This document shows, piece by piece, positions 32,087-59,246 of a DNA stretch of 59,258 nucleotides. Every line of letters begins with the position of its first letter. Within the stretch, counting starts at the first letter, position 1. Source of the DNA: an uncultured bacterium (GTDB taxonomy: Bacteria > Hinthialibacterota > Hinthialibacteria > Hinthialibacterales > JAKPRU01); assembly GCA_964612675.1 (NCBI GenBank), contig CAZTDD010000026.1:1-59258 (forward strand), in the 5' to 3' direction. A program made the position numbers and the translations under genes. The notes beneath the pieces are model-generated. The model did not search any database, had not been told where the DNA came from, and worked only from the letters and a program-made list of their open reading frames with translations.

Positions 32087-32165
32087 AGAATTTCTCCAAA
32101 AAGGAATTCCCAGCGATGAATCGCTGGGCTATTATCGTTCGTCCATCGGACGGTCCGTCAGGCTT

Positions 32166-32612: not shown

Positions 32613-32618
32613 TCGACT

Positions 32619-37145: not shown

Positions 37146-38029
37146 TGCGATTCAACTCCACAAGCCGCTGTCTTATTTCCGAACAAAGGTTCCGCACTCA
37201 CAGTCAGCGCTGTTAGACCGAGTTCCTCTGAGGACAGTCCCAACGCGAGTCCTAGAAGCTGTGTTATATAAAGCACGGGCGTATCGGAGATACCGCCGTG
37301 AGCTTGTCTCATGTCCGATTGCCGTAGGTCGAGATTGGCCTGACATAACGGACACGCAACTACCAAACAATCTGCGCCGGCCTCACGCGCCATAGTGAGG
37401 AGTCTGTAGCCAAGACGGCTTACGACATCGGAATTCGTCAGCGACAGCCCTGCACCGCAGCATTCGGTTTTGTAAGGCCAAGAGACGGAAAAAGCTCCGA
37501 CCGCCTCAACCAGCTCGTCCATACACGTCGGATTCTCCGCATCGTCGAACGCAACCACTTCCGGTGGCCGCGACAAGAGACAACCATAATAGCTCGCGAC
37601 ACGCAAACCTTTCTGAGAAGCAGTGACCTTCCTGCGAATCACGTCCGGTCCGATATCGTTCATTAACACATCGAGGATATGGCGCACTGCCACGCTACCG
37701 TCATAGGAACGGCCCACGATGCGGTTGGTTCGCTCTCGCTCTTCGGGATTGTTCTTGACCTTGTAATTGGCTGTCCGAAGACGCGCATAACAGGAGGCAC
37801 AAGCGGTCAGCACATCGAGCCCCATGGTTTGAGCCTTTTGGAGGTTCATCACAGGCAGCGCCACCGCGAGAGAAGCGTTGCTGGTATGCGCGGGAGTCGA
37901 TCCGCAACACACCCAGTCCGGTATTTCCTCGAGCTCAATATCCAAAGCCCGGCATAGCGCTCGGGTCGAGCGATCGAAATCCCAAGCCGTCGATTCAAGA
38001 CTACAACCGGGATAATAAGCGTATTTCAC
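37142..38029 (-). CDS. hdrB: heterodisulfide reductase subunit B (two CCG domains)
   Basis: Duplicated C..CCG..C...C motifs (WVCCGSTP and TECCGAG). Confidence 0.9.
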   Translation of the reverse strand: MKYAYYPGCSLESTAWDFDRSTRALCRALDIELEEIPDWVCCGSTPAHTSNASLAVALPVMNLQKAQTMGLDVLTACASCYARLRTANYKVKNNPEERERTNRIVGRSYDGSVAVRHILDVLMNDIGPDVIRRKVTASQKGLRVASYYGCLLSRPPEVVAFDDAENPTCMDELVEAVGAFSVSWPYKTECCGAGLSLTNSDVVSRLGYRLLTMAREAGADCLVVACPLCQANLDLRQSDMRQAHGGISDTPVLYITQLLGLALGLSSEELGLTALTVSAEPLFGNKTAACGVESQ

Positions 38030-38592
38030 CGCTTCCTCTCCTCTTCTTGGGCTCGGCGAAAGACCTCTCTAACCTCGCCCGCGCTTCCGCTGCGCGATGG
38101 GAGAAGAGAGAGTTTTCCTTTCGAGAACATTTTCGGTGCTTTGTCTACGTCGGAAAAGAAGTCGCCGGATCGGATTTTGTAGGCGGTCAACATGCCCAGT
38201 TCGAAAACGCGCCCGTGACGGCGAACGCTCTGCAGAAACGAACGATTGAACCGCTCTCCGCGCGAGTCGGGAACCGACACTTTTCGCTCAACCGCCATCA
38301 TCCGCAGTGTGTCCATGACGGCGGCGATGTCAATTCCCATAGGGCAGCGCGTTGTACAGGCTTCACACGACGCACACAGCCAGATAGCGCGCGATTCGAG
38401 AGCCTTCGATTCCTCGCCGAGATGAATCAGACGCATAATCTGACTGGACAGAAAATCCATTTCCGGAGCAACCGGGCAGCCGGTTGAACACTTGTGGCAT
38501 TGGAAGCACGCACTAACCGGAGTGCCGCTGCGGCGTTCCACCTCGTGCAAAAAGCGAGTCTCTTTCCATTCAACTGTTGAAGTCATCTTCAT
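38026..38592 (-). CDS. hdrC: heterodisulfide reductase subunit C (2x[4Fe-4S])
   Basis: CFQCHKCSTGCP and CASCEACTTRCP. Confidence 0.88.
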   Translation of the reverse strand: MKMTSTVEWKETRFLHEVERRSGTPVSACFQCHKCSTGCPVAPEMDFLSSQIMRLIHLGEESKALESRAIWLCASCEACTTRCPMGIDIAAVMDTLRMMAVERKVSVPDSRGERFNRSFLQSVRRHGRVFELGMLTAYKIRSGDFFSDVDKAPKMFSKGKLSLLPSRSGSAGEVREVFRRAQEEERKR

Positions 38593-41261
38593 TCACTCAA
38601 TAATTCAAAATCGGGTTCCGGCTCTTCCTGTGCCATGGCGCTGGGAACGACTTTCCGATACACCTCGAATGGTTTCCGCAACACGCCATCGACAGTCAAA
38701 AGGTCTCGTTCGATCTCTATACCGAACAGACGCTCGTTCTCTCGCAGATAGGGTAGTATCAATTTCCAGTCTTCGGCTGTAAGCGATTGGTACGCTCCGG
38801 CGTTGAGCTGTTCCTGCACAAGCGTGCGATGCGGATCGCGAACGTAAATCGCGCCTCCGGAGGCCAGAGAAAGCAGATTGCTGCCCGGGTAAGGCAAATC
38901 CAGAGGAACGACACGGCCGTTCTCATCGAATCGGATACCATTCACAATTGCGAATCCGCCTCCCTTGAGTGGGTCGCCCGCCATGAACGACTCCGCCAGG
39001 AAATCGAGAGCGGTTCCGTTAATCACCACCCGGGGTTTCCCGACAGCGTTGATCATCGGCCTCCCGGCGGCGTTCCCCATGACATAGAATTCCCCGCCCT
39101 TCGCACCGTAAAGAAACGTCTGACCGACGTCGCCGTAAATCACGATTTTGCCTCGTTTGGCAATTTGGCAGAGCTGATCCTGCGCGTTGCAATGAACAAG
39201 CGCTTCGAGACCGTCTAGACCGGACCCGAGATAATCGCCGGGATTGTCATAACAATCCACACGAAGCCCGTCGGAGCTGGGACCGAAACCGGCCGCGTGA
39301 AAACGCGTCCCCCGCGTGTTGTAATGGATCAACCATTTCCAGCCGAGCTGGTAGGCATCGACCGCGAGTTTCGCGTCGCACGTCGGACCTTCGGGTGTAA
39401 AACCTCTCGCGTCAATCAAAAGGACTCTTTCGCCCGGGCGAGGTTCGCGGAGATCTTCACGTATCTCCCAATTCACTCTGCGACATGTTGACTCCGCTGT
39501 ATCGGTAAGAAGCGGTTGGCTCTCGAAAATCTTTCCAAGCCCGTCACGCAGAATGGTCAGAATGGAACTTCGCTTTTTCTCTCCGGTTGGATACTGACGG
39601 TCTAAACAAAGGGTCAATGCCTGGATACCGAGAAGCGGGTTGCTCTCTCCGCTTCGTTTTGCCGTTTCATCGACAAACCACCGAAGGCGGTCGTATGTCA
39701 TTTCCGCGAGAGAATCGCGAAAATACTCAAAAATGACTACAGGATTGTTACTCTCAATCGCACGTTGAATTTCCGCAGCGTCTCGCTCGCGTTCCTGCTC
39801 GGAAGGGGTCTTTAGTTCGGCGGTTGGTTTGTAAGCAACCTGATTTTGAGGCACCGTTACAGGAAGGCCGAACTTATTCGTCACTTGCATCGAGTAATGA
39901 CCGTTGCTGCCCGCAGAGCCGTTCGACGGGACAACATTCATCGCAAATGCCCCACCGTCCGAGTAACTTCCACCGCGCGCGTTCCAGTACATATCCGCAA
40001 CAGGCCGGAAACGGTTGTCTTCGGACGACAAACTGGCCAACGTCGCATCAATCGCCTGTTTTTCGGAACAGATCAACCCGGTAGAGACTTCGCCTTCCTG
40101 TAACGCGAAAACTTGCGGCCGCAGCATCGCTGTATCCGTGATTCCAACCAATTGATAGCCGGCTTCTTTTCCGAGATTGCGCGCAATGATGAAAAACCAC
40201 GGACCGTCGGGCGATCCGTGCATATGTGCCGCCTGGATTTGACGATAAATCCGACGCTTGTCCGCAGCCAACCGGTCGAAGTCCAGTTCGGTAGTCGGTG
40301 CGAGCGCTTCGATGATGTATTCCAGGGGATACTTGTATGTCCGGTTCATTAAATCGAAAAGAAGTACCGAGACTTCAGTATCTGTAATAAACAATGGAAA
40401 TAGATTCCGCTGCGCAAGATACTCGCTGACCGAAACATAATTGGCAAAGTCGCCGTTATGTACCAGCGCTTCGTTCATCCCAATGAACGGGTGGGCTCCG
40501 CCGGGATGCCATACACGACCACGCGTTGGATAGCGCTGGTGAGCGATCCACACATGGGCACGTAAATCCGGCATCCGGTAATACTGAACCGCAGCCTCGG
40601 CGTATCCCACGATTTTAATGATAAAGAGATTCCGAGCGTGCGAGAGAACGAAAGCCCGCTTCTCGCCCAAAGAAGAATAGAATTCCGTATTCAACAGAAA
40701 CGAATTCTGAAAAACAAATTCATCCTCGATTTCGCGTTCGGGAAGATGAGTCAGTCCTTTTTCCTGAGCGAACTGTGCGAGGACGTCCGACTTCACACGA
40801 ACGAAATACCGGGCGACTTCCGGGGGTTTGATCTCCAGCAATGGTACGTCCCGGTAATCGTCGACAGTTGGAATCACCCCTCCCTGATGAATATCGAAGT
40901 ATGGCTCGATACGGCTCTTTTCGACATCCTTCTGCGCCTCAGGATCCAAGAGGGCGATTTGGAGGATATAGTCTTCGTCGATCTCTTTTTGCGTGACGCC
41001 CAGATCCTCGGGCACAATCCCGCATGCGGCAATTCCGCCTCCCCGTCCGTTTCCGCGATTCCGCATTTGGATGGAGGGCTCGTAGATGTGACGGCCCCCG
41101 ACAGGGACGGTACAAGCGAATCCCGTCACACCGCAGCCGCCCTCGGCTTCCGTGGGTTTTGGGAACCAGGATTCGCCCTCTTTAGGCCGCAGATGGGATC
41201 GCGACCGAATCAGCATATTGGCCCGATTCAAGTTATTGATTTCCATTGTCTTTGAACTCAT
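38589..41261 (-). CDS. glutamate-synthase-like fusion: class-II glutamine amidotransferase (GltA-like) + GXGXG domain (GltC-like)
   Basis: The GGCGVTGF Ntn-type Cys is preceded by ~40 aa. C-terminal IVIYGDVGQTFLYGAKGGEFYVMGNAAGRPM...NGTALDF GXGXG repeats. Confidence 0.75.
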   Translation of the reverse strand: MSSKTMEINNLNRANMLIRSRSHLRPKEGESWFPKPTEAEGGCGVTGFACTVPVGGRHIYEPSIQMRNRGNGRGGGIAACGIVPEDLGVTQKEIDEDYILQIALLDPEAQKDVEKSRIEPYFDIHQGGVIPTVDDYRDVPLLEIKPPEVARYFVRVKSDVLAQFAQEKGLTHLPEREIEDEFVFQNSFLLNTEFYSSLGEKRAFVLSHARNLFIIKIVGYAEAAVQYYRMPDLRAHVWIAHQRYPTRGRVWHPGGAHPFIGMNEALVHNGDFANYVSVSEYLAQRNLFPLFITDTEVSVLLFDLMNRTYKYPLEYIIEALAPTTELDFDRLAADKRRIYRQIQAAHMHGSPDGPWFFIIARNLGKEAGYQLVGITDTAMLRPQVFALQEGEVSTGLICSEKQAIDATLASLSSEDNRFRPVADMYWNARGGSYSDGGAFAMNVVPSNGSAGSNGHYSMQVTNKFGLPVTVPQNQVAYKPTAELKTPSEQERERDAAEIQRAIESNNPVVIFEYFRDSLAEMTYDRLRWFVDETAKRSGESNPLLGIQALTLCLDRQYPTGEKKRSSILTILRDGLGKIFESQPLLTDTAESTCRRVNWEIREDLREPRPGERVLLIDARGFTPEGPTCDAKLAVDAYQLGWKWLIHYNTRGTRFHAAGFGPSSDGLRVDCYDNPGDYLGSGLDGLEALVHCNAQDQLCQIAKRGKIVIYGDVGQTFLYGAKGGEFYVMGNAAGRPMINAVGKPRVVINGTALDFLAESFMAGDPLKGGGFAIVNGIRFDENGRVVPLDLPYPGSNLLSLASGGAIYVRDPHRTLVQEQLNAGAYQSLTAEDWKLILPYLRENERLFGIEIERDLLTVDGVLRKPFEVYRKVVPSAMAQEEPEPDFELLSE

Positions 41262-41476
41262 ATCCGTCTCGGCTCGGCGGGAGCCTCGCCCTCCCGGGCC
41301 TGTCGCCTTCTGAATTTGGCTCCCCTAGTCCTTCTCGGCTCGGCAGGAGCCTCGCCCTCCCGGGCCTGTCGCCTTCCGGATTTGTCTCACCTAGTCCTTG
41401 AACTCATGTTCGTCTCGGCTCGGCGGGAGCCTTGCCCTCCCGGGCCTGTCGCCTTCCGGATTTGTCTCACCTAGTT
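41262..41476. repeat. three tandem 66-80-bp units, each with a GGGAGGGCGAGGCTCCCGCCGAGCCG hairpin (minus-strand sense), between two operon genes
   Basis: Units start near 41267, 41333 and 41413. Each also duplicates the first ~14 nt (ATGAGTTCAAG) of the downstream gene start. Confidence 0.75.
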
Positions 41477-43039
41477 TTGCGGAGAGCCTTCGTAATCTAA
41501 ATGCGTTAGTAAATCGGTCCGCCCGCGAAGGGCCTGTACTGAGTCGAGTCCCAGGCGATACAAGATGTCGATCAACATCTCGCGCCAGGCGTTGTACATG
41601 TTCACGAGTCTCTGGGTACACCAATCGATGGTGACCATTTCCAGAAGTTCCGGGTCCGTCGTTGCGATTCCGCGTGCACAGCCTCGCCCGCTCTCACAAC
41701 AACCGCATCGGATACAGCCCAGAGCGACAAGTTCCGCCGTGCCGATAATGACGCCATCCGCTCCCAGGGCGATCGATTTCGCAATATCGTCAGGCGTCCG
41801 TATGCCGCCGCTGACCATCAGACTCACTTCATCGCGGACCCCTTCATCCACGAGGAAGCTATGTACCATGTTGATGGCATACTCGATCGGCATCGCAATG
41901 TTCTTTTTCGCGATGTTCGGCGCGGCTCCGGTCCCTCCGTAGCTTCCATCCAGATGAACAATGTGCGAGCCCGCACAATACGATCCGACTGCTACCATAT
42001 CCACATCGGCGGGAGTCGAGACTTTCGTCGAAAGAAGCGCCCGCGGATTGATGTGGGCTATCCAATCGAGATGTTTCTTATGATCTTCGATGGAGTAGAC
42101 ACTGTGAAATGGAAACGGCGAGAAAAGAGACGTACCGACAACCGCCTCGCGCATCCTCGCGACATCGGGAGTATTCTTGTCGCCGAGAAGGTGTCCGCCG
42201 AGGCCCGGCTTGGCACCCTGTGCGTACTTGAATTCGACGATTCGTGCACGTTGAATGGTCTCTTCCCGTACTCCGAATAGTCCGGTGGCGACCTGGGTGA
42301 TCATGTGATCCGCGTAAGGAATCATCCGGTCGGGATATCCGCCTTCTCCCGTGCAGCTGAACGAATTCCAGGCTTTCGCCGCCCGCGCCTTCGCCAACAA
42401 AGCCCGCAGGTTGGTCGACCCGTACGACATCCCGCCACCGTACCACGGAATATCGATTTTCACTCTCGGACGCGAGTCGTTGCGCCGATTCAGTACCAGT
42501 TCCGTAGAAATATCTTCGCGCCGTAAATCCGCAGGCGGAGAGTCCGGGAACAGAAATCGGAGACGATCGAAACCGCCACCGGATGCGCCGATTGCACTTT
42601 CAAGATGGGGCGGCGGCACCTCACCGGTCTCGGCCATCATCCATGTAGCAACCAGCAAATCCGCCGGCCATCGATGATCGCCCATGGTATCGAACGCCGG
42701 ATTTCGGCTGAGGGAGAGCGCACCGACCGGACAAGTATCGATGCAGTAATGGTCCGTCTTGGCACAGTCAAAGCCGATACAACGATAGTCAAACGGACGC
42801 GTCATACGGCGGTATCCCTCGGGACGGACATGCACCTCGTGAGGGCAGGTTTCGACGCATTTTCCACAAGCGATACAGTTGGACGCCCGGAACAGGCTGA
42901 ACTTGCCGATCTCGTTCCGGTAACGTGGCGGCGCGGGATTCAATTCTCTTGAGACCTTTGCGTACTCGGGCTTTGACGCGAATTCATCGCCGCGTTGCGG
43001 GTGAATCGTGGATACATCGGCTGCCGGTGTTGCGTTCAT
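41471..43039 (-). CDS. archaeal-type glutamate synthase FMN-binding (GltB-like) subunit with N-terminal 2x[4Fe-4S]
   Basis: CIACGKCVETCP..CIGFDCAKTDHYCIDTCP, then MVSGGIRTPDDIAKSIALGADGVIIGT FMN barrel, then CIRCGCCESGRGC. Confidence 0.8.
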   Translation of the reverse strand: MNATPAADVSTIHPQRGDEFASKPEYAKVSRELNPAPPRYRNEIGKFSLFRASNCIACGKCVETCPHEVHVRPEGYRRMTRPFDYRCIGFDCAKTDHYCIDTCPVGALSLSRNPAFDTMGDHRWPADLLVATWMMAETGEVPPPHLESAIGASGGGFDRLRFLFPDSPPADLRREDISTELVLNRRNDSRPRVKIDIPWYGGGMSYGSTNLRALLAKARAAKAWNSFSCTGEGGYPDRMIPYADHMITQVATGLFGVREETIQRARIVEFKYAQGAKPGLGGHLLGDKNTPDVARMREAVVGTSLFSPFPFHSVYSIEDHKKHLDWIAHINPRALLSTKVSTPADVDMVAVGSYCAGSHIVHLDGSYGGTGAAPNIAKKNIAMPIEYAINMVHSFLVDEGVRDEVSLMVSGGIRTPDDIAKSIALGADGVIIGTAELVALGCIRCGCCESGRGCARGIATTDPELLEMVTIDWCTQRLVNMYNAWREMLIDILYRLGLDSVQALRGRTDLLTHLDYEGSPQN

Positions 43040-43042
43040 TTC

Positions 43043-44437
43043 CTACTGTGCTCCAACCTGGACCTTCCTCTTTCCAAAGATACGTCCGAATGTGTTGCGT
43101 TCAAGATCCTCAAAGAACATACAGCGGCCTGTTTCGCCGCGCAGACGACGAACCTCACGGATCCCCATAGCGCCCAGCATCTCCAACAGCTGGCTATGCC
43201 ACGCGCTCATCAGATTGACAATCCTCTGGACGGCGTATTCAGGATCGGCTTCGTCCAGCGCGACAGGACACATCTCGCCGTGCTCGCATTCGCCGCAGAG
43301 TCTGCATTCCAATGCGACAATGAGGGGAACATCGATAGCGATCAGGTCCGCTCCGCATATCACCGCTTTGGCCATGTGCTCGGCTAGAGCGATTCCCCCG
43401 GAGGCAATGATGGTTACCTCGTCGCGTGAGCCTTCCTTGACCAATGCGCCGTGTACATCCCGCAAGACATCGCGCATATGTCTCGGATCGGGCGCAACAT
43501 CCTCTTTTCCGTGGATATCGAACCGAATATGAATCACCTCAACGCCTGCCCGGGTCAATTCGAGGACTCGATCCGTGACTCGCGGAGTCGCGAAGAGGCG
43601 TACGGCGACAACCTGGCTGGGGTTCTTTTCTTTCAGTGCTTGACATGTGGAGGAAATGTCGTCCCGCTCCGGTACCATGACCATCGGCGCGGAGGCGAAT
43701 GTCTCGACCTCCGACGGGTCGGAAACCAGTGGAATAATATGTCCTCCGAGCGTCTCTTCAATGATCTCGCTCTCTCGTAAAACGGCCATTGTGCCGATTT
43801 CCGCGGCCGCTTTGGCAACCGACCGTACCACAGGGCCTCTGCACCAATGGTCCGGAATGATGTCGAAAATCAACGGAAGCGGCGTCTCCAGCAACGGGGG
43901 AAAGGGATCATCCTGTCGATCGTCTTGAAAAGTCAGGTGAGACAGTTTTCGGCCGATATCGACGCTTGTGTTGATGTATTCCCGGCCGTGGATACCGTCC
44001 CGGGTGGGCCGCACGATCTCGGACATGTCCGTCCACATGGAATCGAATCCCGAGCCACTGAACGGTCCGCCGTAGCCCGCGCCGGTCACGGGGATTTTGC
44101 CGGTTTCCGCCTGGAACCACGTTGTAAGGATAGTGTCTGGAGTATAATAGTGGTCCCCGAGCCGCCGGTATTCAGGATTCACAACGCGGGTCAGAATCCC
44201 CTTCGTACAGTCCTGAACACAGTTCAGGCAGCCTTTGCACTGATAGATATAGTCGAGATACCCGAGTTCATCGCGCAAGGTATCGGCTTCTTCGCGATAG
44301 AAACCGTAAACACAGCTTCGTTTGACACAATTATGACAGCTGGAGCAGTCTTCCCGCCAATCCACGATTCCGAGTTTGCCGACGGGTCGTGTGCGGGGAG
44401 AGACCGGAACGGGATGGATTGTGTACTTTATTGGCAC
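43043..44437 (-). CDS. second GltB-like FMN-domain paralog with N-terminal ferredoxin
   Basis: CSSCHNCVKRSC..CKGCLNCVQDC, then IIASGGIALAEHMAKAVICGADLIAID, then CRLCGECEHGEMC. Confidence 0.7.
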   Translation of the reverse strand: MPIKYTIHPVPVSPRTRPVGKLGIVDWREDCSSCHNCVKRSCVYGFYREEADTLRDELGYLDYIYQCKGCLNCVQDCTKGILTRVVNPEYRRLGDHYYTPDTILTTWFQAETGKIPVTGAGYGGPFSGSGFDSMWTDMSEIVRPTRDGIHGREYINTSVDIGRKLSHLTFQDDRQDDPFPPLLETPLPLIFDIIPDHWCRGPVVRSVAKAAAEIGTMAVLRESEIIEETLGGHIIPLVSDPSEVETFASAPMVMVPERDDISSTCQALKEKNPSQVVAVRLFATPRVTDRVLELTRAGVEVIHIRFDIHGKEDVAPDPRHMRDVLRDVHGALVKEGSRDEVTIIASGGIALAEHMAKAVICGADLIAIDVPLIVALECRLCGECEHGEMCPVALDEADPEYAVQRIVNLMSAWHSQLLEMLGAMGIREVRRLRGETGRCMFFEDLERNTFGRIFGKRKVQVGAQ

Positions 44438-44439
44438 GG

Positions 44440-45372
44440 CTAATCGATCCTTAGTCCTGTTTTTTGAATCACTTCCAGTGTCGCATCTTCATCGCCGCAG
44501 ATCTCGAATCCCCGCAACCCCTCAATCGATGAGAGCCGCTGAATGGCCTCCACAGCGATGTCGATTCCCGCAGAACGCTGCGCCGTCTCCTCGGTTTGTG
44601 ACTGGATGCGCTCAATGAGAGCATCCGGCACTCTTGGCGATGGACGTTTGGCTGCAAATTCTCTGGCGGACTGCGCATCCGTCAGGATATGGATACCCGC
44701 CAGTATAGCAGTCTTCTTATGGACACCGGTCTCAGCGACCTGTTTCCACCAGATGTCGAAGCGGTCTATGTCGAAAACCGGCTGAGTAATCAGAAACTGA
44801 GCCCCTGCGTTCACTTTCTTCACGACCCGCATCACCTGCAGTTCCATCGGGTCCGCGAAGGGGGAGGCGACAGCACCGAGACAGAACGGACCTGCACCAT
44901 TCAATTGCTCTTGCCCAACAATCGACGCATCGGATTCGATCCTCGAAATTGCCTGGATCAACTGAGTTGAATCGATGTCGAAAACGTTTTTCGCGGCTCG
45001 CGAACGTCCCAAGGTTTGGTGAGCGCCGGTATTGGAGAGAACGTTCCGAATGTTGAGGGCAGCGGCCCCAAGGATGTCGGATAGAAGTGCGATACGGTTT
45101 CTGTCGCGTGTGACCATGTGGAGGATCGGCTCCACACCTTCAGCGTTGAGCAGCGAAGCTGCTGCGAGAGCCGACATCGTGACCCCGTCCCGGTTGTCGC
45201 TCACACCGACGGCATGCACTTTGCCGCTGAGTTTCTTGGCTGCGTTTCGAATCGGTTCGGGATCGGCGCTCGACGGGGGCGCTATCTCGGCAACGACAAT
45301 TGATTGCCCCGATTGGATTCGTTTATGAAGTGCTGTTTTCGCTTTGTCCATTGTCCTCAACCTGTCATACAT
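44440..45372 (-). CDS. metF: 5,10-methylenetetrahydrofolate reductase (acetogen-type MetF)
   Basis: MTHFR TIM-barrel similarity (SIVVAEIAPP..., ...LITQPVFD...). Immediately upstream of the glt-like and hdr genes with a 2-nt gap. Confidence 0.75.
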   Translation of the reverse strand: MYDRLRTMDKAKTALHKRIQSGQSIVVAEIAPPSSADPEPIRNAAKKLSGKVHAVGVSDNRDGVTMSALAAASLLNAEGVEPILHMVTRDRNRIALLSDILGAAALNIRNVLSNTGAHQTLGRSRAAKNVFDIDSTQLIQAISRIESDASIVGQEQLNGAGPFCLGAVASPFADPMELQVMRVVKKVNAGAQFLITQPVFDIDRFDIWWKQVAETGVHKKTAILAGIHILTDAQSAREFAAKRPSPRVPDALIERIQSQTEETAQRSAGIDIAVEAIQRLSSIEGLRGFEICGDEDATLEVIQKTGLRID

Positions 45373-45437
45373 CGAAATGGAATCGGCCGGCTGTTCTGCA
45401 GTGCGTCGTGAGTCGTAAATTCACTCGACAACTTCTG

Positions 45438-45857
45438 TTATTCAGCTCTGAGGAGCGGACTATCACCTAATTCTGCAAACCGGGAAACCGCAGAACGAAT
45501 CTCGTTCTCAAGCTTCTCGGGAGCATCCTCAGGAGAACACTCAAGTAATCGGACCCGGTCGGGTTCAATTCCGATTTCCGAGAGAAGCCGCTGAACAGTA
45601 TGAGTCCGCACCTCCGCTCGATAGTTGCCCTGCGCCAGTCGACATTCGCCTTTCGGACACGCGACAACGCAAACACCGCGTCCGCCTCCTTCAAGAGCAT
45701 GAAAGAGATATTGGATATCGATTTTGCCGCTGCACGGGATCTCCTGGACGCGCACATGTACGTCGTCCTGCTTCCATTGACGGGGGACCTTTGCCCCGTG
45801 AGGTACGCAGTTGTGGCAGACATAAACCAGTACATCGGGACACACAGGATTCGTCAT
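45438..45857 (-). CDS. second MvhD/FlpD-family protein (first gene of the operon)
   Basis: VYVCHNCVP...PCSGKID..LFHALEGGGRGVCVVACPKGECRLAQGN. The ATG at 45857 has an AGGTG RBS; the track start at 45953 lacks one. Confidence 0.75.
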   Translation of the reverse strand: MTNPVCPDVLVYVCHNCVPHGAKVPRQWKQDDVHVRVQEIPCSGKIDIQYLFHALEGGGRGVCVVACPKGECRLAQGNYRAEVRTHTVQRLLSEIGIEPDRVRLLECSPEDAPEKLENEIRSAVSRFAELGDSPLLRAE

Positions 45858-46018
45858 TGGGTTAGCCACACCTACTTTTCTCTTCGATATGGGGTACGTA
45901 CCTCGAATATCGACAAAGGGTACCAAACGGCCTTTGCGGACCGCTGGTCTCATGTATCGAATCCGAGCAACAAGAGAGAGAAATGTTTACTCTGCCAGCT
46001 GGAACCTGTCAACCCTAG

Positions 46019-47053: not shown

Positions 47054-48250
47054 ATGTCTGAAGGGATGGAACAATTATATCAGGAACGGCTCAAGCGCTA
47101 CGTCACCGCGATGCGCAACGAGAAACCGGATCGAATTCCCATTCGACCGTTTGTGGCGGAATTTGCCGCGAAATACGCGGGATACACCTGTCAGGAAGTT
47201 ACGCACGACTATGAGAAGGCATTTGCCGCCGCGCGGAAATGTGCCGCCGATTTCGATTGGGACGCGGTGGTCGGAAACATGGTGTATGTCTGGACCGGAC
47301 TGACTCAGGCCATCGGTCTCAAATATTACGCAGCACCCGGGATTGAGATACCGGCCGAGACTGGGTTCCAATACGTCGAACCGCCTGAAGAAGAAGCATT
47401 TATGAAACCGGACGAATACGATCGTCTTATCGCCGATCCAACAGAGTTCCTATTCAACGTTTGGCTGCCCCGAGTGTCGACAGACGTTGCCGCCGAGGGA
47501 GAGCCCACATCGTACAGAAACAACCTTTCCTTCCTCAAAGGCGGCATGGCGATGCTGTCTTACTTCATGGCCTTCGGAACACAAAACGCGCGGCTCCGGT
47601 CGGAATCCGGAACCGTCCCTGCGATTGCGGGGATCTTGAAAGCACCGTTCGACATCTTGGCGGATAAGTTGAGAGGGTATATCGGTCTGTCCATGGATTT
47701 ATTCGAGCGACCCGAAAAGGTTCTTGCTGCATGCGAAGCGCTCGCCCCACACTTGACACACATCGCTCTCGCGGGGGCGGATCCCGAGAAAAACGTGCCG
47801 ATCTCCATTTGGATGCATCGCGGCTGCGTACCTTTCGTAGGGCCGGACCAGTTCAGTCGGTATTACTGGTCCACACTTAAGCCGATCATTCAGGAAATCT
47901 GGAACAACGGACATCAAGTGTTGTTCTACGCCGAAGGCGACTGGAATGCCCACTTGGAATCATTCGCCGAATTGCCCGACGCGAGTATTATCTACCATGC
48001 CGACAAGGCGGACATTTTCGAGATCCACAAAAAACTCGGACACAAATTCTGTATCAGTGGAGGAATTCCGAACACATTACTGAATTTCAACACGCCGGAT
48101 GAAGTCCGAGAACGCTGTAAAGAGGTTATTGACGGCGTGGCGAAAGACGGTGGCTATATCATGGATGCCAGCGCCATTATTCAAAACGACGCCAAAGTGG
48201 AAAATATCCAGGCGTTGACCGATTTTACACGTGAATACGGAGTATACTGA
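47054..48250 (+). CDS. uroporphyrinogen-decarboxylase (URO-D) family protein, likely a methyltransferase-like paralog
   Basis: URO-D/MtaA-like fold similarity. The ATG at 47054 has an AAGGAG RBS. Confidence 0.6.
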   Translation: MSEGMEQLYQERLKRYVTAMRNEKPDRIPIRPFVAEFAAKYAGYTCQEVTHDYEKAFAAARKCAADFDWDAVVGNMVYVWTGLTQAIGLKYYAAPGIEIPAETGFQYVEPPEEEAFMKPDEYDRLIADPTEFLFNVWLPRVSTDVAAEGEPTSYRNNLSFLKGGMAMLSYFMAFGTQNARLRSESGTVPAIAGILKAPFDILADKLRGYIGLSMDLFERPEKVLAACEALAPHLTHIALAGADPEKNVPISIWMHRGCVPFVGPDQFSRYYWSTLKPIIQEIWNNGHQVLFYAEGDWNAHLESFAELPDASIIYHADKADIFEIHKKLGHKFCISGGIPNTLLNFNTPDEVRERCKEVIDGVAKDGGYIMDASAIIQNDAKVENIQALTDFTREYGVY

Positions 48251-48760
48251 ACGAAGAACCTCGAAATGCGTTTACTGAATTATTCGGAGGAAGTGCCATA
48301 ATGAACGAAAACACCGAACAGAAACCAAAGCCGGGAATCTGTATACCATGGGAAGAAAAACTGAAAGAAATTCCCGAGATCCAAGGCGATCATGAAATCG
48401 TTAAACAAAAATGGGAAGAAAACGAGTTTTTTGCACACCTGTATGTGTGGCATTGTCTTGTCTCGTTTTAATGAGGATTTTGATTCCGTCACAAGCCCAC
48501 GCGAAACGTGGTAATCGTAGGGTCGGCTCACGGGCGTTATATCGGAACATTCCTTCCGACTCATTATCACGTAAGCCCGTAGCCCACCACTATCTGTTCG
48601 GAATTCGCACCAAGCAACCGGTTGGTGGGCTACGGGCTCCAGTAGACATTAACCGGACACCGCAGCGCGATACGACGCCCGTGAGCCCACCCTACAGCCG
48701 TCCACCAGACTTCTTGCCCCCCGTCAGATTTTGGCGGTCCCGCAAAAAGTCCGGAGCGTT

Positions 48761-48970
48761 CTTCTCCCTCTCCCTCTGGGAGAGGGCCGGGGTGAGGGAA
48801 CGTTGCATTTTCCGGTGACGTTCCATTGTACGTGACAGACCCCTGTCATCATCCAACCCCTTTGCCGCTGATTCATTTGCTGTCTCTGACGAATACACAG
48901 GCTAGTCATGATAAACGAACCCGATGCAATTAACGCCCCTCACCCTACCCCTCTCCCGGGGGGAGAGGGA
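48761..48970. repeat. inverted pair of CCCTCACCC..CCCTCTCCC-N3-5-GGGAGAGGG palindromic units flanking ~135 bp
   Basis: Units at ~48761-48797 (reverse orientation) and ~48938-48970. The same family occurs at 59093-59258. Confidence 0.6.
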
Positions 48971-49025
48971 ACTTCCGATGCCAACTTTCGACTTTTTGCG
49001 ACGGCATCAGATTCTGGCGAAAAGA

Positions 49026-49070
49026 ACGACCCCGTCCGGAATCGCAGTCCGAACGGGGTCGTTTCTTGTC
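49026..49070 (-). terminator. bidirectional intrinsic terminator downstream of the encapsulin gene
   Basis: 15-bp stem ACGACCCCGTCCGGA/TCCGAACGGGGTCGT, 7-nt loop, T-tracts on both strands. Confidence 0.65.
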
Positions 49071-49151
49071 GGTGGAGAGAAAAACAGCTGCAGCATCGAG
49101 ATTCCGATAATGCTCGCTGTCCTATCGCATCATATTTGTAAATATTCCTTT

Positions 49152-49961
49152 TTACGAACCGGCTTTCAACTGAACGACAGCCGCCGGCTCGATAACGCGG
49201 AACGTGAAACTTTCGGTTAAATACAGCTCGACTTTATCCCGATCGTGGCTCGCATATCCGATGGAAATATCCTGACCAACCGCCATTTCAAAATCGCCGC
49301 CGCGTTTCGATATTAGGACTCCGCCCTTCAAAACAGGACTCCACAAGATATCGCCCTGGGTAATGTCCTTGATGAAACGACGGATTGGGTAGCCTCGATG
49401 CATGGTTTGATCGAGACCGTGATACGGATTCGATCCGAGAACCAGGTCATACGGTCCCCCGATGCCTTTCAGGCGCATCATTTTCACGCCTTCTGCAACG
49501 ACAGAAGGGTATTTCTCGGCATCCTTGCCAAGTGGAAGCGCTTTGTGATCGCTTGATTGGAGGAGACCCTTGATGCCTGCTTTGTCAAACCCGTCATAAA
49601 GTACCGACTCTTCGAAACGGGCCAGTTTATCGGCGGAGTCCGTGACTGGTTCCAGATCGGCGTCGGCGGCACCGCGCGTAATCGAATCCAGTTCCATTTG
49701 ATCCAATGTAAACGGGATACGGGCTTCAATCAGTGGAAGGACTTCGCGAATGCCCCATGTCACTCCGTTGGTCTCGTGTTTATCGGGGATATGGAGCCGG
49801 CCTGCGTTGACCGCGCCAAGTTCCCAACCGTGCGGTCCACTGAAATCCACGATTCGCCGTGCGGAGAGTCGTGGCTTTAGTGTCCGGTTCGCTTCCTCTT
49901 CGATCTCTTTCCAAGCCTCTTCGGTAATCGGTGCTAATGAACGTCTCAGTATATCGCCCAT
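49152..49961 (-). CDS. family-1 encapsulin shell protein (linocin M18/CFP29-like)
   Basis: MGDILRRSLAPITEEAWKEIEEEA N-terminus and HK97-fold-length similarity. AAGGAG RBS. The track start at 49967 is a TTG. Confidence 0.88.
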   Translation of the reverse strand: MGDILRRSLAPITEEAWKEIEEEANRTLKPRLSARRIVDFSGPHGWELGAVNAGRLHIPDKHETNGVTWGIREVLPLIEARIPFTLDQMELDSITRGAADADLEPVTDSADKLARFEESVLYDGFDKAGIKGLLQSSDHKALPLGKDAEKYPSVVAEGVKMMRLKGIGGPYDLVLGSNPYHGLDQTMHRGYPIRRFIKDITQGDILWSPVLKGGVLISKRGGDFEMAVGQDISIGYASHDRDKVELYLTESFTFRVIEPAAVVQLKAGS

Positions 49962-49967
49962 GGTCAA

Positions 49968-50348
49968 TTACTCCTTGTCGCTCATGTTGCCAATGCCAAG
50001 ACTTTCTCCGGAAGAAGAAGTCCCAGCTTCCTGTGAGTTCTCGTTGCCTCCCTCAGCCTCTTCCTCCACCGCAGTGATGGGAGCGGAGGTGAACAGGTAT
50101 GTTCGCAGTTCCTCGTCAAACTCCGGAATTCTCCTGCGCAGCCACTCCAGAGCCATCGCCGCATGTTCAATTTCCTCGTTGCGGTTGTGAATCAGGATGT
50201 CCCTCAGCGATTCGTCGGCGGTAACATCCGCTCGCTGGTTGTACCAGTCGACCGCTTCCAATTCCTCGATCAAACTGGCCAACGCACGGTGAACGTTTTG
50301 CGCCTCCGCCGAAATGTCAGCATACGGCTCGTGATACGTTGTGCTCAT
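49968..50348 (-). CDS. encapsulated ferritin-like cargo protein with a C-terminal targeting peptide
   Basis: Ferritin-like E..H motifs (EIEHAAMALEW) and a C-terminal ...SGESLGIGNMSDKE resembling the SLGIG-type encapsulin cargo tag. AAGGAGG RBS. Confidence 0.8.
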   Translation of the reverse strand: MSTTYHEPYADISAEAQNVHRALASLIEELEAVDWYNQRADVTADESLRDILIHNRNEEIEHAAMALEWLRRRIPEFDEELRTYLFTSAPITAVEEEAEGGNENSQEAGTSSSGESLGIGNMSDKE

Positions 50349-50639
50349 TATGCAGCCTCCTTATCCATGCAATCCGAACTCGCGGGGATACGAAAACACC
50401 GAACCCGTGTGAATCTGTTAACGATAATCCACTGGTGCCAACGTTATCTACAATCTATACGATTCCGATTTTTTCAAATCGGCCCCCAGCCACATAGGAG
50501 AGCAAATCCTGTGCAGCTACTCTACTAAGAGCTATCCAGTAGGTATTCTGATGTCAAGTGGCGTGCCCTCAGCCCAAACCTTCCGTAGCGAGTGGTAAAC
50601 AAAAAAGGCGCTGGGCTTCTCTCATTCGAATTCCCTCGG

Positions 50640-51188
50640 CTAGAACAAGGCATCGTAGGTCACAATTACGAAGATCACCGCACCAATCAGTAATTTTGCC
50701 ACCATCGCCAACACATGCCCGATCATTGCCGCTCTTCCCACTTCAAAGGGCTGCTGTGCCGTACCGCCTTTCCACGACTGCCCGAAGGCGCCTCCAAGGA
50801 ATGCGCCGACTCCGCCGCCGACAAGGGCGCCGAGTATCGGCCCGAAAAAGAAAATCGGCAGCAGGATCACCGCTCCTACGGTGGCTCCTGCAAAACCGCC
50901 GACCACGGCGAGAATCGCCGCCCGTCGGCTCGCACCACTCTTGAACGCTCCTACAGGCCCCCCGCTCAATTCGATCAACTCCCCGACAGCTGCAAGTGCT
51001 GTAATCACGCCGACAGTAGCCCATCGAATTCCCAAACCGTCTTCAGCGGAGAACCCCCACGCGAAGAGTGCCGTCACAACCACCATGATCCAGTTGCCCG
51101 GAATCATCAGCAACGAGGTGCACCAGGCGGCAAAATTCAATACCAGAAGCAGCATCACCCAAAGATAGTACGTCCAACTTATGTCCAT
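50640..51188 (-). CDS. DUF456-like small membrane protein
   Basis: 4 TM helices with Gly-rich GG.VGAFLGGAFG segments. Confidence 0.45.
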   Translation of the reverse strand: MDISWTYYLWVMLLLVLNFAAWCTSLLMIPGNWIMVVVTALFAWGFSAEDGLGIRWATVGVITALAAVGELIELSGGPVGAFKSGASRRAAILAVVGGFAGATVGAVILLPIFFFGPILGALVGGGVGAFLGGAFGQSWKGGTAQQPFEVGRAAMIGHVLAMVAKLLIGAVIFVIVTYDALF

Positions 51189-51322: not shown

Positions 51323-53287
51323 ATGCCGTACCGATCCCGCTTTCTTTTCTTCTCTCTCGCGTTTCTGCTTGTTTCCGGTTCCTCGTTGAGCTTGTGCACA
51401 TTCGGGGCGGAGGTACCGACATATGACGCGGACACCAAGGGTGTGTACCTTCGTGAATGGCTTCTGTGCGGGCCGTTTCCCAACAGCCTCAGCACCGATG
51501 TAACCGATTACATGCACGGTGAACGATGCATTGGCTTTGAGCGGGATTACCTGGTCGGCATTGGCGGAGAACAGCACGCCGATCCCCGCCCCGGCCAGAC
51601 CGTTGAAATCGAAGATCTCAAACTAAAACATGATTGGTTCACGTTCGAGTCGGAAACCGACGAGGTCCGTTTGAACGATGTATTCTCACCCAACGATCTT
51701 GTCGTCGGGTACGCATTCTGCCATCTCCAATCGAAAAAGAAACAAAGAGTAATGTTGTCCGTCGGCAGCAACGACGGAATCAAGATATGGCTCAACGGCG
51801 AGCTGGTTCATCGTTTCCATGTGCCGCACGGACGCTGGCTGCAGAAAGATGATGACTACGTCCCGGTGGAACTGCAACAAGGCGTGAACCGTTTGCTCTT
51901 AAAGATCGACGAGGGCAGTGGAGATTTCGGTTTCGTGGTTCGTCTTCTGGATTACAAAGAGACAGTCACGAACCTTCGTACACACATGGACGAACACAAA
52001 CACCTATCGGTGATTACACGGGAAGACGAAGTCGTCGTCACATTCGGCACGCCGCACCGAATTGAAGCGCTGTCACCCGGAAACCACGTAAAGATCGATA
52101 TTGTCGATGAGACCGGTGAGATTGTCGATACACAATCGGGAACGCCCGGTTTCGAGCAAGTCTTCCCCTTGGACAAGGTCCCGGAAGGACGTTTCACAGT
52201 AAGGGCGGAATTCGCGCTATCGGACGGCGAGAAAATCGTCTCGGAAAAAGAGCATTTCAAAGGCTTACTTCCCAGACACCCACTGCCCAAGCGACTCGGT
52301 GCGGACCTCGCAATGCGGAATGCTGAAGGGAAGCCATTTTTCCCGATTGGAACGTACGGTGCCCCTGTCGATCAGTATGAGCGAATTCGCCAGGCCGGAT
52401 ACACATTTGTCGTGGGCGGCACGGGGTCGCTCGATGCCGCTGAAGCCGCAGGCTTGAAAATGGGCGTTTCAATCCATGGACACGGAGCCGATTGGCTGGA
52501 TGAAATTCGCGAGACGGTTCGGGCTCACCGCGATCATCCCGCCCTCTTATTTTGGATGCTGTTCGACGAACCCGGTTACAACAAAGCCGATTTGATGCTG
52601 ATCCACGACGCGTACAATTTGATTTATGACGAGGATCCCGTCCATCCGGTGTACCTCGTGATTACGAATCCGAAAGTCTACGAGACATTTGGACGATGCT
52701 GCGATGTTCTGGCAGTCGATACCTATCCGATTTCACGCAGCGACATATCGAAAGTCCCCGAAAACATCGCTAGGGCCTACCGTGTTTCGGACGGCGACCA
52801 ACCGGTTTGGCATTGCGGACAGCTGTTCAGCTGGCCGGCGGACCGCTACCCGACTCCTAAGGAACACCGCCTGATGACCTATTCCGCGATTCAGGCGGGA
52901 ACAAAAGCTATGCTTTGGTATACCTATTCATGGCGGGGCGATGCGTTGCCGGAAACCGTACCAGTCCTTTGGGAAGAACATCTACAAATAATGGCCGAAC
53001 TCAAAGAACTGGAACCGGTAATCGTTTATCCGGGACTCGGCGAGAATCTCGGAACCGGCCATCACTCGCTGCGAGCTACCGCAAAACGCGGCCCGGATAA
53101 TTCGCTTACGGTTTTTGCAGTGAATGTCTCGGAAGAAAAAACAGTCACATCGCGGATACAATTACCGACAACCTTTACGGGCGATATCGAAGTCCTTTTT
53201 CAAAACCGCAGTCAACACATTGAAAACGGATTATTATGCGATCGGTTTGCACCATTGGATGTGCACATCTATCGATTGAATCCTTGA
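51323..53287 (+). CDS. secreted two-domain protein: N-terminal beta-sandwich (PA14/CBM-like) + C-terminal TIM-barrel glycoside-hydrolase-like domain
   Basis: Signal peptide. FWMLFDEPGY resembles the GH NEP catalytic-acid block. Confidence 0.45.
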   Translation: MPYRSRFLFFSLAFLLVSGSSLSLCTFGAEVPTYDADTKGVYLREWLLCGPFPNSLSTDVTDYMHGERCIGFERDYLVGIGGEQHADPRPGQTVEIEDLKLKHDWFTFESETDEVRLNDVFSPNDLVVGYAFCHLQSKKKQRVMLSVGSNDGIKIWLNGELVHRFHVPHGRWLQKDDDYVPVELQQGVNRLLLKIDEGSGDFGFVVRLLDYKETVTNLRTHMDEHKHLSVITREDEVVVTFGTPHRIEALSPGNHVKIDIVDETGEIVDTQSGTPGFEQVFPLDKVPEGRFTVRAEFALSDGEKIVSEKEHFKGLLPRHPLPKRLGADLAMRNAEGKPFFPIGTYGAPVDQYERIRQAGYTFVVGGTGSLDAAEAAGLKMGVSIHGHGADWLDEIRETVRAHRDHPALLFWMLFDEPGYNKADLMLIHDAYNLIYDEDPVHPVYLVITNPKVYETFGRCCDVLAVDTYPISRSDISKVPENIARAYRVSDGDQPVWHCGQLFSWPADRYPTPKEHRLMTYSAIQAGTKAMLWYTYSWRGDALPETVPVLWEEHLQIMAELKELEPVIVYPGLGENLGTGHHSLRATAKRGPDNSLTVFAVNVSEEKTVTSRIQLPTTFTGDIEVLFQNRSQHIENGLLCDRFAPLDVHIYRLNP

Positions 53288-57305: not shown

Positions 57306-59246
57306 TTACATTCCACCGATCCTCCCATTCAGCTTTAAATCATTCACCAACACGGATGATTCTACTCCAGGCCCACCATTCTGAACGACGCAGAGAACAG
57401 GAAACGCTGGATTCTCGGCGGTGAATCCGCCACCGATGGTCACCTCCTGGAATTCAGCACCCGCTAATCCTGCGTTGTTTACGAAGACACCGACGTTGCC
57501 GTTTCCGTTTGTCATTACCAACGCCGTTACGCCACCCTCTCCATCGAACAATCGCGCATCGACCGATGCCTGAAGCATATGTGGAAAACCGCCCTGGAGC
57601 TGACTCGCGAAGGCGCCGATATTCGCGGCGTCATTCGTTTGCGTGAGTGACAATAGGAAATTGTTCCCGCCTTGTGCATCCGGGAACGGAAGCGCTGTTC
57701 CGCCATTTTCGGCCATTACATTCTTTAATAAACCGGACGTATCTCCGTCAAACGAACCATCGACATCCAGCGTGACATTTTCAAATGGAAATTCCGGCAA
57801 TTCGGAAATAACCAGATTATCGAAATACACTTTTACCGGTCCCGCTGCCGATTCCGGCAAAGCGACTTGAAGTCCAGGCTGAAGCGCGTCCGAAGGCGGA
57901 TCATAAATGAGAACGAATTTGCCCCACTCGCCGACAGGCACATCCGCACCACTTGCGTTCGAATACCCCAGCTGTCCATCAATCGGCGAATTGAGTGCGG
58001 CTAACGCCGCTGAACAACCTTCGCCATCGGCTCGCACATTTACGGACAACAACACTGCACCGTCGCCCGTCGAGATCGGCACGGTCGAAATCGCCAATGT
58101 GCCCTGGCCCGGTTGAGCTTCGATAATCAAGCCACGGCCGTCCGTGCCTGGACCTGCTGGAACGTCACCGACGGAAATTGCCGCTGCGTCAAATCCGGTT
58201 GCGGGACTATACACAAATCCTGCTTCTTCGACTGTTGCTTCCGAGAAATCGATCTGAGCGAGAACATTCTGCGGAGCCGGCGTTGGTGTCGGCTCGTCGC
58301 CACCCTCAAGCGGTCGATAATATTTTCCGCGATTGTCCGCGTATGCTACATTACCGAGCGTGTCGACCGCTTGGACAAAAAACTCGATACCGGCGACTTT
58401 CGTTAATTCGCCTTGCCAGATCAATGGATTCGAAGACAACTGGTCAAGATCAACTGGGTTCCATTCGCCGGTTCCGTCCGTCCATAACGCGACAACTCGA
58501 TACAACGGATCGCCGTCGACATCTTCCGCTTCAACAGTAATCAAAACGCGTTCGCCCTGAACGATTACGGACGGATCGCTGACAGTCGGTGGTGTTTCGC
58601 TGGATTCGCTGCCTGTGTAATACGTGCTGTAGCGAAGTTCTTCGTACAGGCGCTCCTGCTTCGTTTGATCGTTGTATTGACCCGCAACGAAGACGAAACG
58701 TTGAAGCGGAGGCAGGCCGCCCTGCGCCGCAATTGTATTCACCGTAAACGGTATCGCAGGGAAGAAGCCTTGTTTATCGAAAATTCCTTCTTGGGCTTCG
58801 CCCGCTCCCCATTGCGAACCTTCGATGACAGGGTCGAAATTGTCGATTACTTCGTATTTCGCATACTCAAGGACAGCACCTTTCGGGAAGAAGCCTTCAG
58901 TGCCGGTGATATAGCCTGCGCGCGGCTGGACCGGTTCATTGACGTTGGCCTGAGTGATTCCATTAAATGCATAGAAAATCCCGGATTCGGTTTCGTGTTT
59001 TTCGAGGAATTGTTTGTCAATCAATTCGATACGCTGGCTGCGGAGGAGTCCTTCTCCGACGGCGTTCGGTTCTGCCCAGAGGATATTTTCCCTCACCCTA
59101 ACCCTCTCCCAGAGGGAGAGGGGACTGGTTGTCTTTGGCAGCAAGTCTTCTTTTCTTTCTGTGACGGAGAGCGGACTCTCCGTTTCTGCAAGTAGTTTCT
59201 TCTCCCTCTCCCAGAGGGAGAGGGGACTGGTTGTCTTTGGCAGCAA
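57306..59246 (-). CDS. large secreted/surface hypothetical protein (5' end uncertain, N-terminus reads through repeats)
   Basis: Long ORF with Gly/Asp-rich beta-type composition. The first ~55 codons are translations of the CCCTCTCCC/GGGAGAGGG repeat, so the true start or upstream extension is unresolved at the window edge. Confidence 0.5.
   Translation of the reverse strand: MLPKTTSPLSLWEREKKLLAETESPLSVTERKEDLLPKTTSPLSLWERVRVRENILWAEPNAVGEGLLRSQRIELIDKQFLEKHETESGIFYAFNGITQANVNEPVQPRAGYITGTEGFFPKGAVLEYAKYEVIDNFDPVIEGSQWGAGEAQEGIFDKQGFFPAIPFTVNTIAAQGGLPPLQRFVFVAGQYNDQTKQERLYEELRYSTYYTGSESSETPPTVSDPSVIVQGERVLITVEAEDVDGDPLYRVVALWTDGTGEWNPVDLDQLSSNPLIWQGELTKVAGIEFFVQAVDTLGNVAYADNRGKYYRPLEGGDEPTPTPAPQNVLAQIDFSEATVEEAGFVYSPATGFDAAAISVGDVPAGPGTDGRGLIIEAQPGQGTLAISTVPISTGDGAVLLSVNVRADGEGCSAALAALNSPIDGQLGYSNASGADVPVGEWGKFVLIYDPPSDALQPGLQVALPESAAGPVKVYFDNLVISELPEFPFENVTLDVDGSFDGDTSGLLKNVMAENGGTALPFPDAQGGNNFLLSLTQTNDAANIGAFASQLQGGFPHMLQASVDARLFDGEGGVTALVMTNGNGNVGVFVNNAGLAGAEFQEVTIGGGFTAENPAFPVLCVVQNGGPGVESSVLVNDLKLNGRIGGM

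Follow-up and report, generated by a model that had tools for sequence, protein, structure and literature searches.

The window, a stretch of 59,258 nucleotides from an uncultured bacterium, carries on its minus strand an operon of two tightly linked genes. The upstream gene encodes an encapsulated ferritin (EncFtn) as cargo and the downstream gene encodes a family 1 encapsulin shell protein (Table 1). The initial annotation had described a two-gene encapsulin nanocompartment at positions 49026-50348, and both proteins indeed pass curated family models. All features described for the locus are present; the strand had been left unstated and is the minus strand. The cargo gene ends with a TAA stop codon at 49970-49968, the shell gene starts with an ATG at 49961-49959 and ends with its stop codon at 49154-49152, and the 6 nt that had been claimed to separate the two genes are there as TTGACC. 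The AAGGAG motif proposed as the ribosome-binding site of the shell gene is also found, 9 nt before the shell ATG. With a gap of 6 nt and a shell ribosome-binding site that lies inside the end of the cargo gene, the two genes are translationally close-coupled. The AAGGAGG motif of the cargo gene is conserved in L004, a locus of the closest sister lineage, and the AAGGAG of the shell gene is also kept there, despite the loss of the shell. The listing of open reading frames stretches the shell gene to a TTG at 49967; the model with the ATG start and 269 aa is found in the gene calls on two Logan contigs.

Table 1. Features of the encapsulin locus and its surroundings, in positions of the window.
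Feature	Position	Strand	Evidence or remark
EncFtn (encapsulated ferritin / Flp-TP) cargo gene, 126 aa	49968..50348	minus	Pfam, NCBIfam, PDB matches
C-terminal targeting peptide region, cargo residues 114-126 (GESLGIGNMSDKE), core SLGIGNM	49971..50009	minus	alignment to known localisation sequences
Family 1 encapsulin shell gene, 269 aa, ATG start	49152..49961	minus	Pfam, NCBIfam, PDB matches
Cargo ribosome-binding site AAGGAGG	50356..50362	minus	read from sequence; 7 nt before ATG
Shell ribosome-binding site AAGGAG	49971..49976	minus	read from sequence; equals the last two cargo codons (K125, E126)
Hairpin A, imperfect stem-loop followed by UUUUUCUCUCC	49079..49126 (about)	minus	-18.9 kcal/mol
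Hairpin B, strong near-perfect stem-loop	49018..49071	both	fold energy, inverted-repeat and terminator scans
Intergenic leader, DUF456 gene to cargo gene, 291 nt	50349..50639	minus	presumed promoter region
DUF456 gene	50640-51188	minus	PF04306 at 1.3e-12
Metabolic cluster: MetV-like, 1508-aa HdrA-like flavoprotein, HdrB-like (CCG), HdrC-like, glutamate-synthase-like, MetF, MvhD	31394-45953

Cargo, targeting peptide and shell

The cargo protein is matched by the Pfam family EncFtn-like (PF22277) at 1.2e-39 with 134.4 bits (cut-off 27) over profile positions 2-84 of 85, and by the NCBIfam model TIGR04535, 'encapsulin-associated ferritin-like protein', with 150.3 bits (cut-off 125). The profile scan that the initial annotation had proposed for a ferritin-like or EncFtn cargo therefore ends above the cut-offs of both models. 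Matches to solved structures are 7oe2 (1.1e-39), 33bf (5e-34), 5da5 (1e-29) and 3k6c (2.3e-28), and the identity to the EncFtn of Haliangium ochraceum is 57% in a full-length alignment. Against the full-length EncFtn of Rhodospirillum rubrum (33bf_A), the alignment runs ungapped through both helices at an offset of 3. The ferroxidase centre of R. rubrum EncFtn is built from Glu32, Glu62, His65 and Tyr39, contributed by two chains, and Glu31 and Glu34 form a second metal site (PMC5012862). A cargo lacking the di-iron ligands had been named at the outset as the observation that would speak against the assignment; every ligand defined in R. rubrum is present. E29, E59, H62 and Y36 of the cargo correspond to E32, E62, H65 and Y39 of R. 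rubrum, and the entry-site residues are conserved as well, with E28, E31 and W35 in place of E31, E34 and W38. The residues lie in the motifs LIEELEAVDWY and NEEIEH, both of which are found in 118 of the 120 closest homologues. The core of the cargo is under strong purifying selection, with a dN/dS of about 0.05 in comparison with L004, L012 and L014. The comparison with L006 was set aside, because an indel disrupts the ungapped codon pairing and makes its dN of 1.75 meaningless. A protein search, which reached its ceiling of 8000 scored candidates, finds at least 7998 homologues at E <= 1e-3, and the EncFtn/Flp cargo class has been reported from 23 bacterial phyla. The named EncFtn relatives, from Hydrogenedentes and Aminicenantes, are only 62-68% identical to the cargo of the window.

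The cargo open reading frame ends in SGESLGIGNMSDKE, directly followed by the stop codon. A flexible linker rich in Glu, Gly and Ser spans residues ~93-113 (VEEEAEGGNENSQEAGTSSS) and precedes the targeting peptide. HMMER places SLGIGNM on two localisation sequences, GSLGIGSLR from H. ochraceum and GSLGIGSLK from R. rubrum, and the tail, initially described as targeting-peptide-like, aligns with them residue for residue. Of the 120 closest homologues, most have tails of the xLGIG type, and tails containing SLGIGNM(T/S)K are common. Residue 115 of the cargo is Glu, while relatives mostly carry Gly or Asp before SLGIG. Glu115 probably has no effect on loading, as sequences with ESLGIG or DSLGIG exist among the homologues. 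Among all open reading frames of the window, to which the search for a second cargo was confined, no other shows a C-terminus resembling a targeting peptide.

The shell protein matches the Pfam family Linocin_M18 (PF04454) at 1.8e-86 with 290 bits (cut-off 24.3). It matches the NCBIfam equivalog NF041155, 'family 1 encapsulin nanocompartment shell protein', with 298.6 bits (cut-off 100) over model positions 1-261 of 261. A failure to match the encapsulin family, the outcome that had been named as arguing against the shell, is thus seen with neither model. Both proteins widely exceed the cut-offs, and a chance match to the encapsulin and EncFtn families is ruled out. The alignment with the shell of H. 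ochraceum (PDB 7odw; 3.2e-71, 44% identity) runs end to end with three gapped positions and no frameshifts. The T=1 shells of H. ochraceum, mycobacterial Cfp29 and Thermotoga maritima are among the strong PDB matches (E <= 1e-55), whereas larger shells match far more weakly, namely the T=3 shell EncA of M. xanthus at 1e-11 and the T=4 shell 6nj8 at 6e-8. We infer that the shell self-assembles as a 60-subunit icosahedron with T=1, because solved T=1 shells match far better than T=3 and T=4 shells. When genome contigs were searched with the shell, a single distant locus was found, in a Planctomycetaceae MAG (L002; 44% identity). A search with IlvC gave relatives at 81-84% identity, and its named hits, at about 72%, are spread across many phyla.

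Flanking sequences and genomic context

Two hairpins and not one lie downstream of the shell gene. The stronger, hairpin B, starts ~80 nt past the shell stop codon, and the weaker hairpin A is located between the two. The core of hairpin B consists of 16-nt arms (49025-49040 and 49048-49063) that are 94% complementary and enclose a loop of 7 nt. The fold is predicted at -35.1 kcal/mol for the minus strand and at -36.8 kcal/mol for the plus strand. The stem is flanked by A-rich sequence on its 5' side and U-rich sequence on its 3' side, with U-rich tails on both strands (tail UUCUUUUC), and it is scored as a terminator-like site on the minus strand. The 146-nt region folded here has a z-score of -5.5, and none of 200 shuffled sequences folds as well. 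Judged from these sequence features, hairpin B is likely the intrinsic (Rho-independent) terminator of the operon, and hairpin A may be a first, weak terminator. The strong terminator that the initial annotation had placed 80 nt downstream thus corresponds to hairpin B, a predicted terminator with a G+C-rich stem and a U-tract. Its description as bidirectional holds for its shape: the hairpin is symmetric enough to fold on both strands. There is no convergent gene nearby.

The palindrome-rich flank noted earlier is also recovered, as six inverted-repeat pairs were found in 48200-49200. A non-coding stretch of ~900 nt (48250-49150) consists of nested inverted repeats. A dispersed palindromic unit, CCCTCTCCC-NNN-GGGAGAGGG, is present in four copies in the window, including the stretch downstream of the shell gene, and both Logan contigs end within the repeat stretch, at window position 48980. 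The downstream repeat motif has no exact match among the retrieved loci. The antisense and flank open reading frames (49750-50190, 50163-50528, 49557-49880, 48411-48818, 48924-49220 and 48280-48570) gave no family matches and were treated as spurious.

In the leader upstream of the cargo gene, the sister locus L004 shows conservation of the final ~75 nt. A scan for the sigma-70 consensus found no site in 50349-50639. Rfam returned nothing credible for the whole window at gathering thresholds, nor for 48200-50700 at E <= 1. A GATAAC...ATTATC pair in the leader, faint by eye, was considered as a Fur box and rejected, as it is not conserved in L004.

The order of cargo gene followed by shell gene is kept in L002 and in L006-L011 amid unrelated neighbours. 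A desulfoferrodoxin gene lies upstream of the pair in L006 and L007, a DtxR-type repressor and FeoAB are located near it in L008 and L009, and a ZIP transporter follows it in L010 and L011. RND transporters are also among the neighbours of these more distant loci. The cargo-shell pair recurs with wholly different neighbours; therefore, the two genes form a conserved unit.

Further away in the window, a metabolic cluster contains the MetV-like gene at the end opposite to MetF. Modules of the type MetFV-HdrABC-MvhD are typical of strict anaerobes. The initial annotation had taken the host to be an anaerobe. We consider this plausible, as a MetF/MetV/HdrABC/MvhD-type cluster makes the reading reasonable.

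Strain variant and sister lineages

A strain variant of the locus, L015, is 99.87% identical, with 5 nucleotide changes and 1 amino-acid change in the 1191 coding nt of the two genes. The closest sister lineage is represented by L003, L004 and L005, which come from three independent assemblies, and its cargo protein is 88% identical to that of the window. The reading frame of this cargo ends in EAGTSAS, followed by a stop codon, GSLGIGNLSDKE and a second stop codon. A TAA here takes the place of the Gly codon immediately preceding the targeting peptide, which is itself still perfect. In this lineage, the shell gene is deleted after codon 12 (MSDILRRSLAPI), and what remains of it continues in frame into a metallophosphoesterase that carries a twin-arginine-like signal. 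Between the relic targeting peptide and that of the window, we count 4 synonymous and 2 non-synonymous differences, at a dS of ~1.5 between the lineages. Judged by these counts, the loss looks recent, because non-synonymous changes in the relic are few for such a dS. Three further loci, L012-L014, encode orphan EncFtn proteins of 101 aa with neither a targeting peptide nor a shell gene within 5 kb. The orphan proteins of L003-L005 and L012-L014, with lengths of 101-113 aa, resemble the s-FLP class (PMC11202242).

The closest sisters have neither shell nor targeting peptide, and therefore the system is dispensable in the clade. In principle, the system of the window could also be on its way out. 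The joint loss of shell and targeting peptide, with a ferroxidase core that stays under purifying selection, supports the view that targeting peptide and shell are functionally coupled. It also suggests one way in which free short EncFtn proteins come about, namely through losses of the kind seen in the sister lineages. Tentatively, and with the odds somewhat against it, the clade could be one in which the compartment is dispensable and the ferroxidase is not, with the window representing the ancestral state and its relatives having independently freed a short EncFtn. The route may have been a nonsense codon together with a shell deletion in L003-L005 and outright truncation in other relatives. 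If this held, short EncFtn proteins lacking a targeting peptide would arise through decay of encapsulin operons, and in anaerobes EncFtn would have a role that does not depend on the shell, such as soluble Fe(II)/O2 detoxification.

Assignment of the locus and comparison with known encapsulins

We conclude that the locus is very probably an intact, functional operon on the minus strand for a family 1 (classical) encapsulin with EncFtn as cargo, as judged from its sequence. The losses in the sister lineages raise the question of whether the operon is instead a decaying or non-functional remnant, with genes intact by chance and a compartment that is no longer assembled or used. Such a state would be in line with the nonsense codon and shell deletion of L003, L004 and L005 and with the shell-less 101-aa proteins of L012-L014. 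In the window, however, both open reading frames are of full length, the catalytic and targeting features are all there, and good ribosome-binding sites are kept. The alignment of the shell with solved shells spans its whole length and shows no frameshifts, and the changes in L015 leave all but one amino acid unaltered. A remnant is thus very unlikely. Even less probable, to the point of being hardly conceivable, is a shell gene that encodes the HK97-type major capsid protein of a prophage next to a ferritin-like gene by coincidence. Encapsulins share the HK97 fold and are often mistaken for phage capsids (PMC8346489). Against this stand the score with the NF041155 equivalog and the strong PDB matches, which are encapsulins and not phage capsids, as well as the finding of the cargo-shell pair in many unrelated contexts. 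No terminase, portal, protease, tail or other phage gene is found among the neighbours, where a Pfam scan of 25.7-59.2 kb gives metabolic and transport genes only. The phage-capsid reading and the historical 'bacteriocin' reading of the shell are both excluded by the equivalog match and the context.

The assignment as a two-gene operon also has to be weighed against a three-gene system, in which the DUF456 membrane protein would be co-transcribed and cooperate with the compartment, such as by delivering iron or through tethering to the membrane. The initial annotation had named this protein as a flanking element. The gene is indeed present, directly upstream on the same strand in the window, in the strain variants L001 and L015 and in the nearest sisters L003 and L004, and no terminator-like site is scored between it and the cargo gene. 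These are, however, the only loci in which it lies upstream of the cargo, and the functional link is unsupported: the DUF456 gene is absent from the more distant EncFtn-shell loci, which have the desulfoferrodoxin, FeoAB/DtxR, ZIP or RND neighbours described above instead. The gap to the cargo gene is 291 nt in the window and 386 nt in L004, where a palindrome is inserted. In L003 and L004, the DUF456 gene has stayed beside EncFtn after the loss of the shell, together with an unrelated 654-aa gene with which it travels, which argues for plain synteny. A role as third component is therefore unlikely, and DUF456 is probably outside the encapsulin system, a neighbour by synteny and not by function.

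For the two-gene operon, a mechanism can be proposed by analogy to R. rubrum, H. ochraceum and T. maritima. EncFtn would form annular decamers of D5 symmetry with di-iron ferroxidase centres at the dimer interfaces, and the shell protein would assemble into a T=1 icosahedron of 60 subunits and ~24 nm. Targeting peptides would dock on the shell's inner surface, so that a few EncFtn decamers become enclosed; this model of loading and decamers is drawn from PMC8791618 and PMC8346489. EncFtn decamers oxidise Fe(II) and cannot store the product (PMC5012862, PMC8791618, PMC8346489). Within the compartment, Fe(II) would pass the shell pores and be oxidised by EncFtn, and a ferric mineral would be laid down in the lumen. 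The outcome would be iron storage and protection from Fenton chemistry in a probable anaerobe that occasionally meets oxygen. For the T number, the stoichiometry of the cargo and the mineralisation of iron, this proposal draws on homology at 44-57% identity.

The system of the window is of the textbook Flp/EncFtn family 1 type, which is well known, widespread and structurally solved. Family 1 encapsulins loaded with EncFtn or Flp are the second most common type of classical encapsulin. Past its correct annotation, the operon matters little. With it, the list of hosts grows by one uncultured and probably anaerobic bacterium. There is modest value in the window as an intact reference for the natural loss of shell and targeting peptide in the sister lineages.

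The best PDB match for both proteins is the encapsulin:EncFtn system of H. ochraceum (PDB 7odw, 7oe2, 7oeu, 5n5f; Ross et al. 2022, PMC8791618). Both loci have the cargo gene upstream of the shell gene, the ferroxidase residues, and a linker with an xSLGIG targeting peptide. The shells are similar in length, with 269 aa in the window and 266 aa in H. ochraceum, and the targeting tail reads ESLGIGNMSDKE in the window compared with GSLGIGSLR in H. ochraceum. The hosts differ, as H. ochraceum is an aerobic myxobacterium and the window stems from an uncultured, probably anaerobic bacterium. At such moderate identity, the pore dynamics and the loading number of four decamers known for H. ochraceum may not carry over to the window.

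Seven ferroxidase-centre and entry-site residues of the EncFtn from R. rubrum (Rru_A0973; PDB 5da5; He et al. 2016, PMC5012862) are identical in the cargo of the window, and its tail GSLGIGSLK aligns with ESLGIGNMS. With 126 aa compared with 140 aa, the cargo of the window is the shorter protein, and it lacks the residues that R. rubrum carries beyond the targeting peptide. The encapsulin of T. maritima (maritimacin; PDB 3dkt, 7kq5) with its Flp cargo shares family 1 membership, a ferritin-like cargo and, probably, T=1 architecture and an anaerobic host. Its shell aligns over the full length at 1.4e-58 and is more distant from the window shell than those of H. ochraceum and mycobacteria. The s-FLP proteins, for example NE0167 of Nitrosomonas europaea (PDB 3k6c; PMC11202242), have the EncFtn core fold family in common with the cargo of the window. 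The latter is nevertheless not an s-FLP, as it has kept the linker, the targeting peptide and the adjacent shell gene.

Loss of shell and targeting peptide among relatives

In the closest sister lineage (L003, L004 and L005), the EncFtn gene carries a TAA stop codon exactly ahead of a targeting-peptide relic (...GTSAS-stop-GSLGIGNLSDKE-stop), which is itself intact and in frame past this stop. Only the first 12 codons of the shell gene are left and the rest is deleted; this remnant is fused in frame to a predicted Tat-signal metallophosphoesterase. The EncFtn core of this lineage is still under purifying selection, with a dN/dS of 0.045 in comparison with the window.

The 101-aa EncFtn homologues of three further relatives, L012–L014, show 80–86% identity over the core and end immediately past the helical core. 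Neither a targeting peptide nor its relic is found in these proteins, and no shell gene lies within 5 kb of their genes. The three loci have an SHMT/YbjQ neighbourhood in common. They therefore represent either a second, older loss or the class of short EncFtn-like proteins without targeting peptide (s-FLP; PMC11202242).

Coordinates of the features discussed
Feature	Position	Strand	Remark
Redox gene cluster, large	window 31394-45953	-	
28-nt inverted-repeat arm GTAGGGTCGGCTCACGGGCGTTATATCG	window 48517-48544 and 48668-48695		
Repeat sites outside 48250-49150	window 59102-59122 and 59204-59224		
654-aa protein gene	window 51323-53287	+	no Pfam match
EncFtn/shell-loss locus, closest sister lineage	L004:6504-7808; also L003:1018-2322, L005:239-1192		
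101-aa EncFtn homologues	L012:5001-5306, L013:2853-3158, L014:3602-3907		

Repeats and flanking regions

Nested inverted repeats make up the non-coding region of about 900 nt 3' of the shell gene (window 48250-49150), with arms of 34, 30, 28 and 16 nt. The palindromic unit CCCTCTCCC-NNN-GGGAGAGGG, with flanks GGGTGAGGG, occurs in 4 copies in the window versus 0 expected. Two independent short-read contigs, L001 and L015, both stop at window position 48980 within this region, which points to a dispersed, REP/MITE-like repeat. The 28-nt arm is matched with 87% identity over 38 nt at L003:2382-2419 and L004:7868-7905, and may be a conserved repeat at the rearrangement boundary. The sister-lineage copy is located just 3' of the metallophosphoesterase gene that took the place of the shell.

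On the DUF456 side, the 654-aa protein carries an apparent N-terminal signal sequence, and its counterpart in the sister genome (L004:3398-5362, 73% nucleotide identity) is syntenic with DUF456. The sister DUF456-EncFtn intergenic region (L004:6118-6503) holds an insertion of about 130 nt, including a long perfect palindrome (GGGTCGCCCTGATTGCT...AGCAATCAGGGCGAC), that is absent from the window equivalent (50349-50639).

Redox cluster and RNA match

Acido-Lenti-1 is the sole match over gathering score in an Rfam scan of the window (32109-32152, + strand), barely exceeding the cut-off of 37 with 37.6 bits. It sits between the genes for a MetV-like (DUF5981) protein and a fused, 1508-aa HdrA-like flavoprotein with several Fe-S domains. 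Both belong to the redox cluster, together with HdrB-like (CCG), HdrC-like, MetF (MTHFR) and MvhD (FlpD) members and three glutamate-synthase-like proteins with GXGXG and Glu_synthase domains. The cluster is similar to the MetFV-HdrABC-MvhD complexes of anaerobes, but differs from them by its additional GltB-like subunits.
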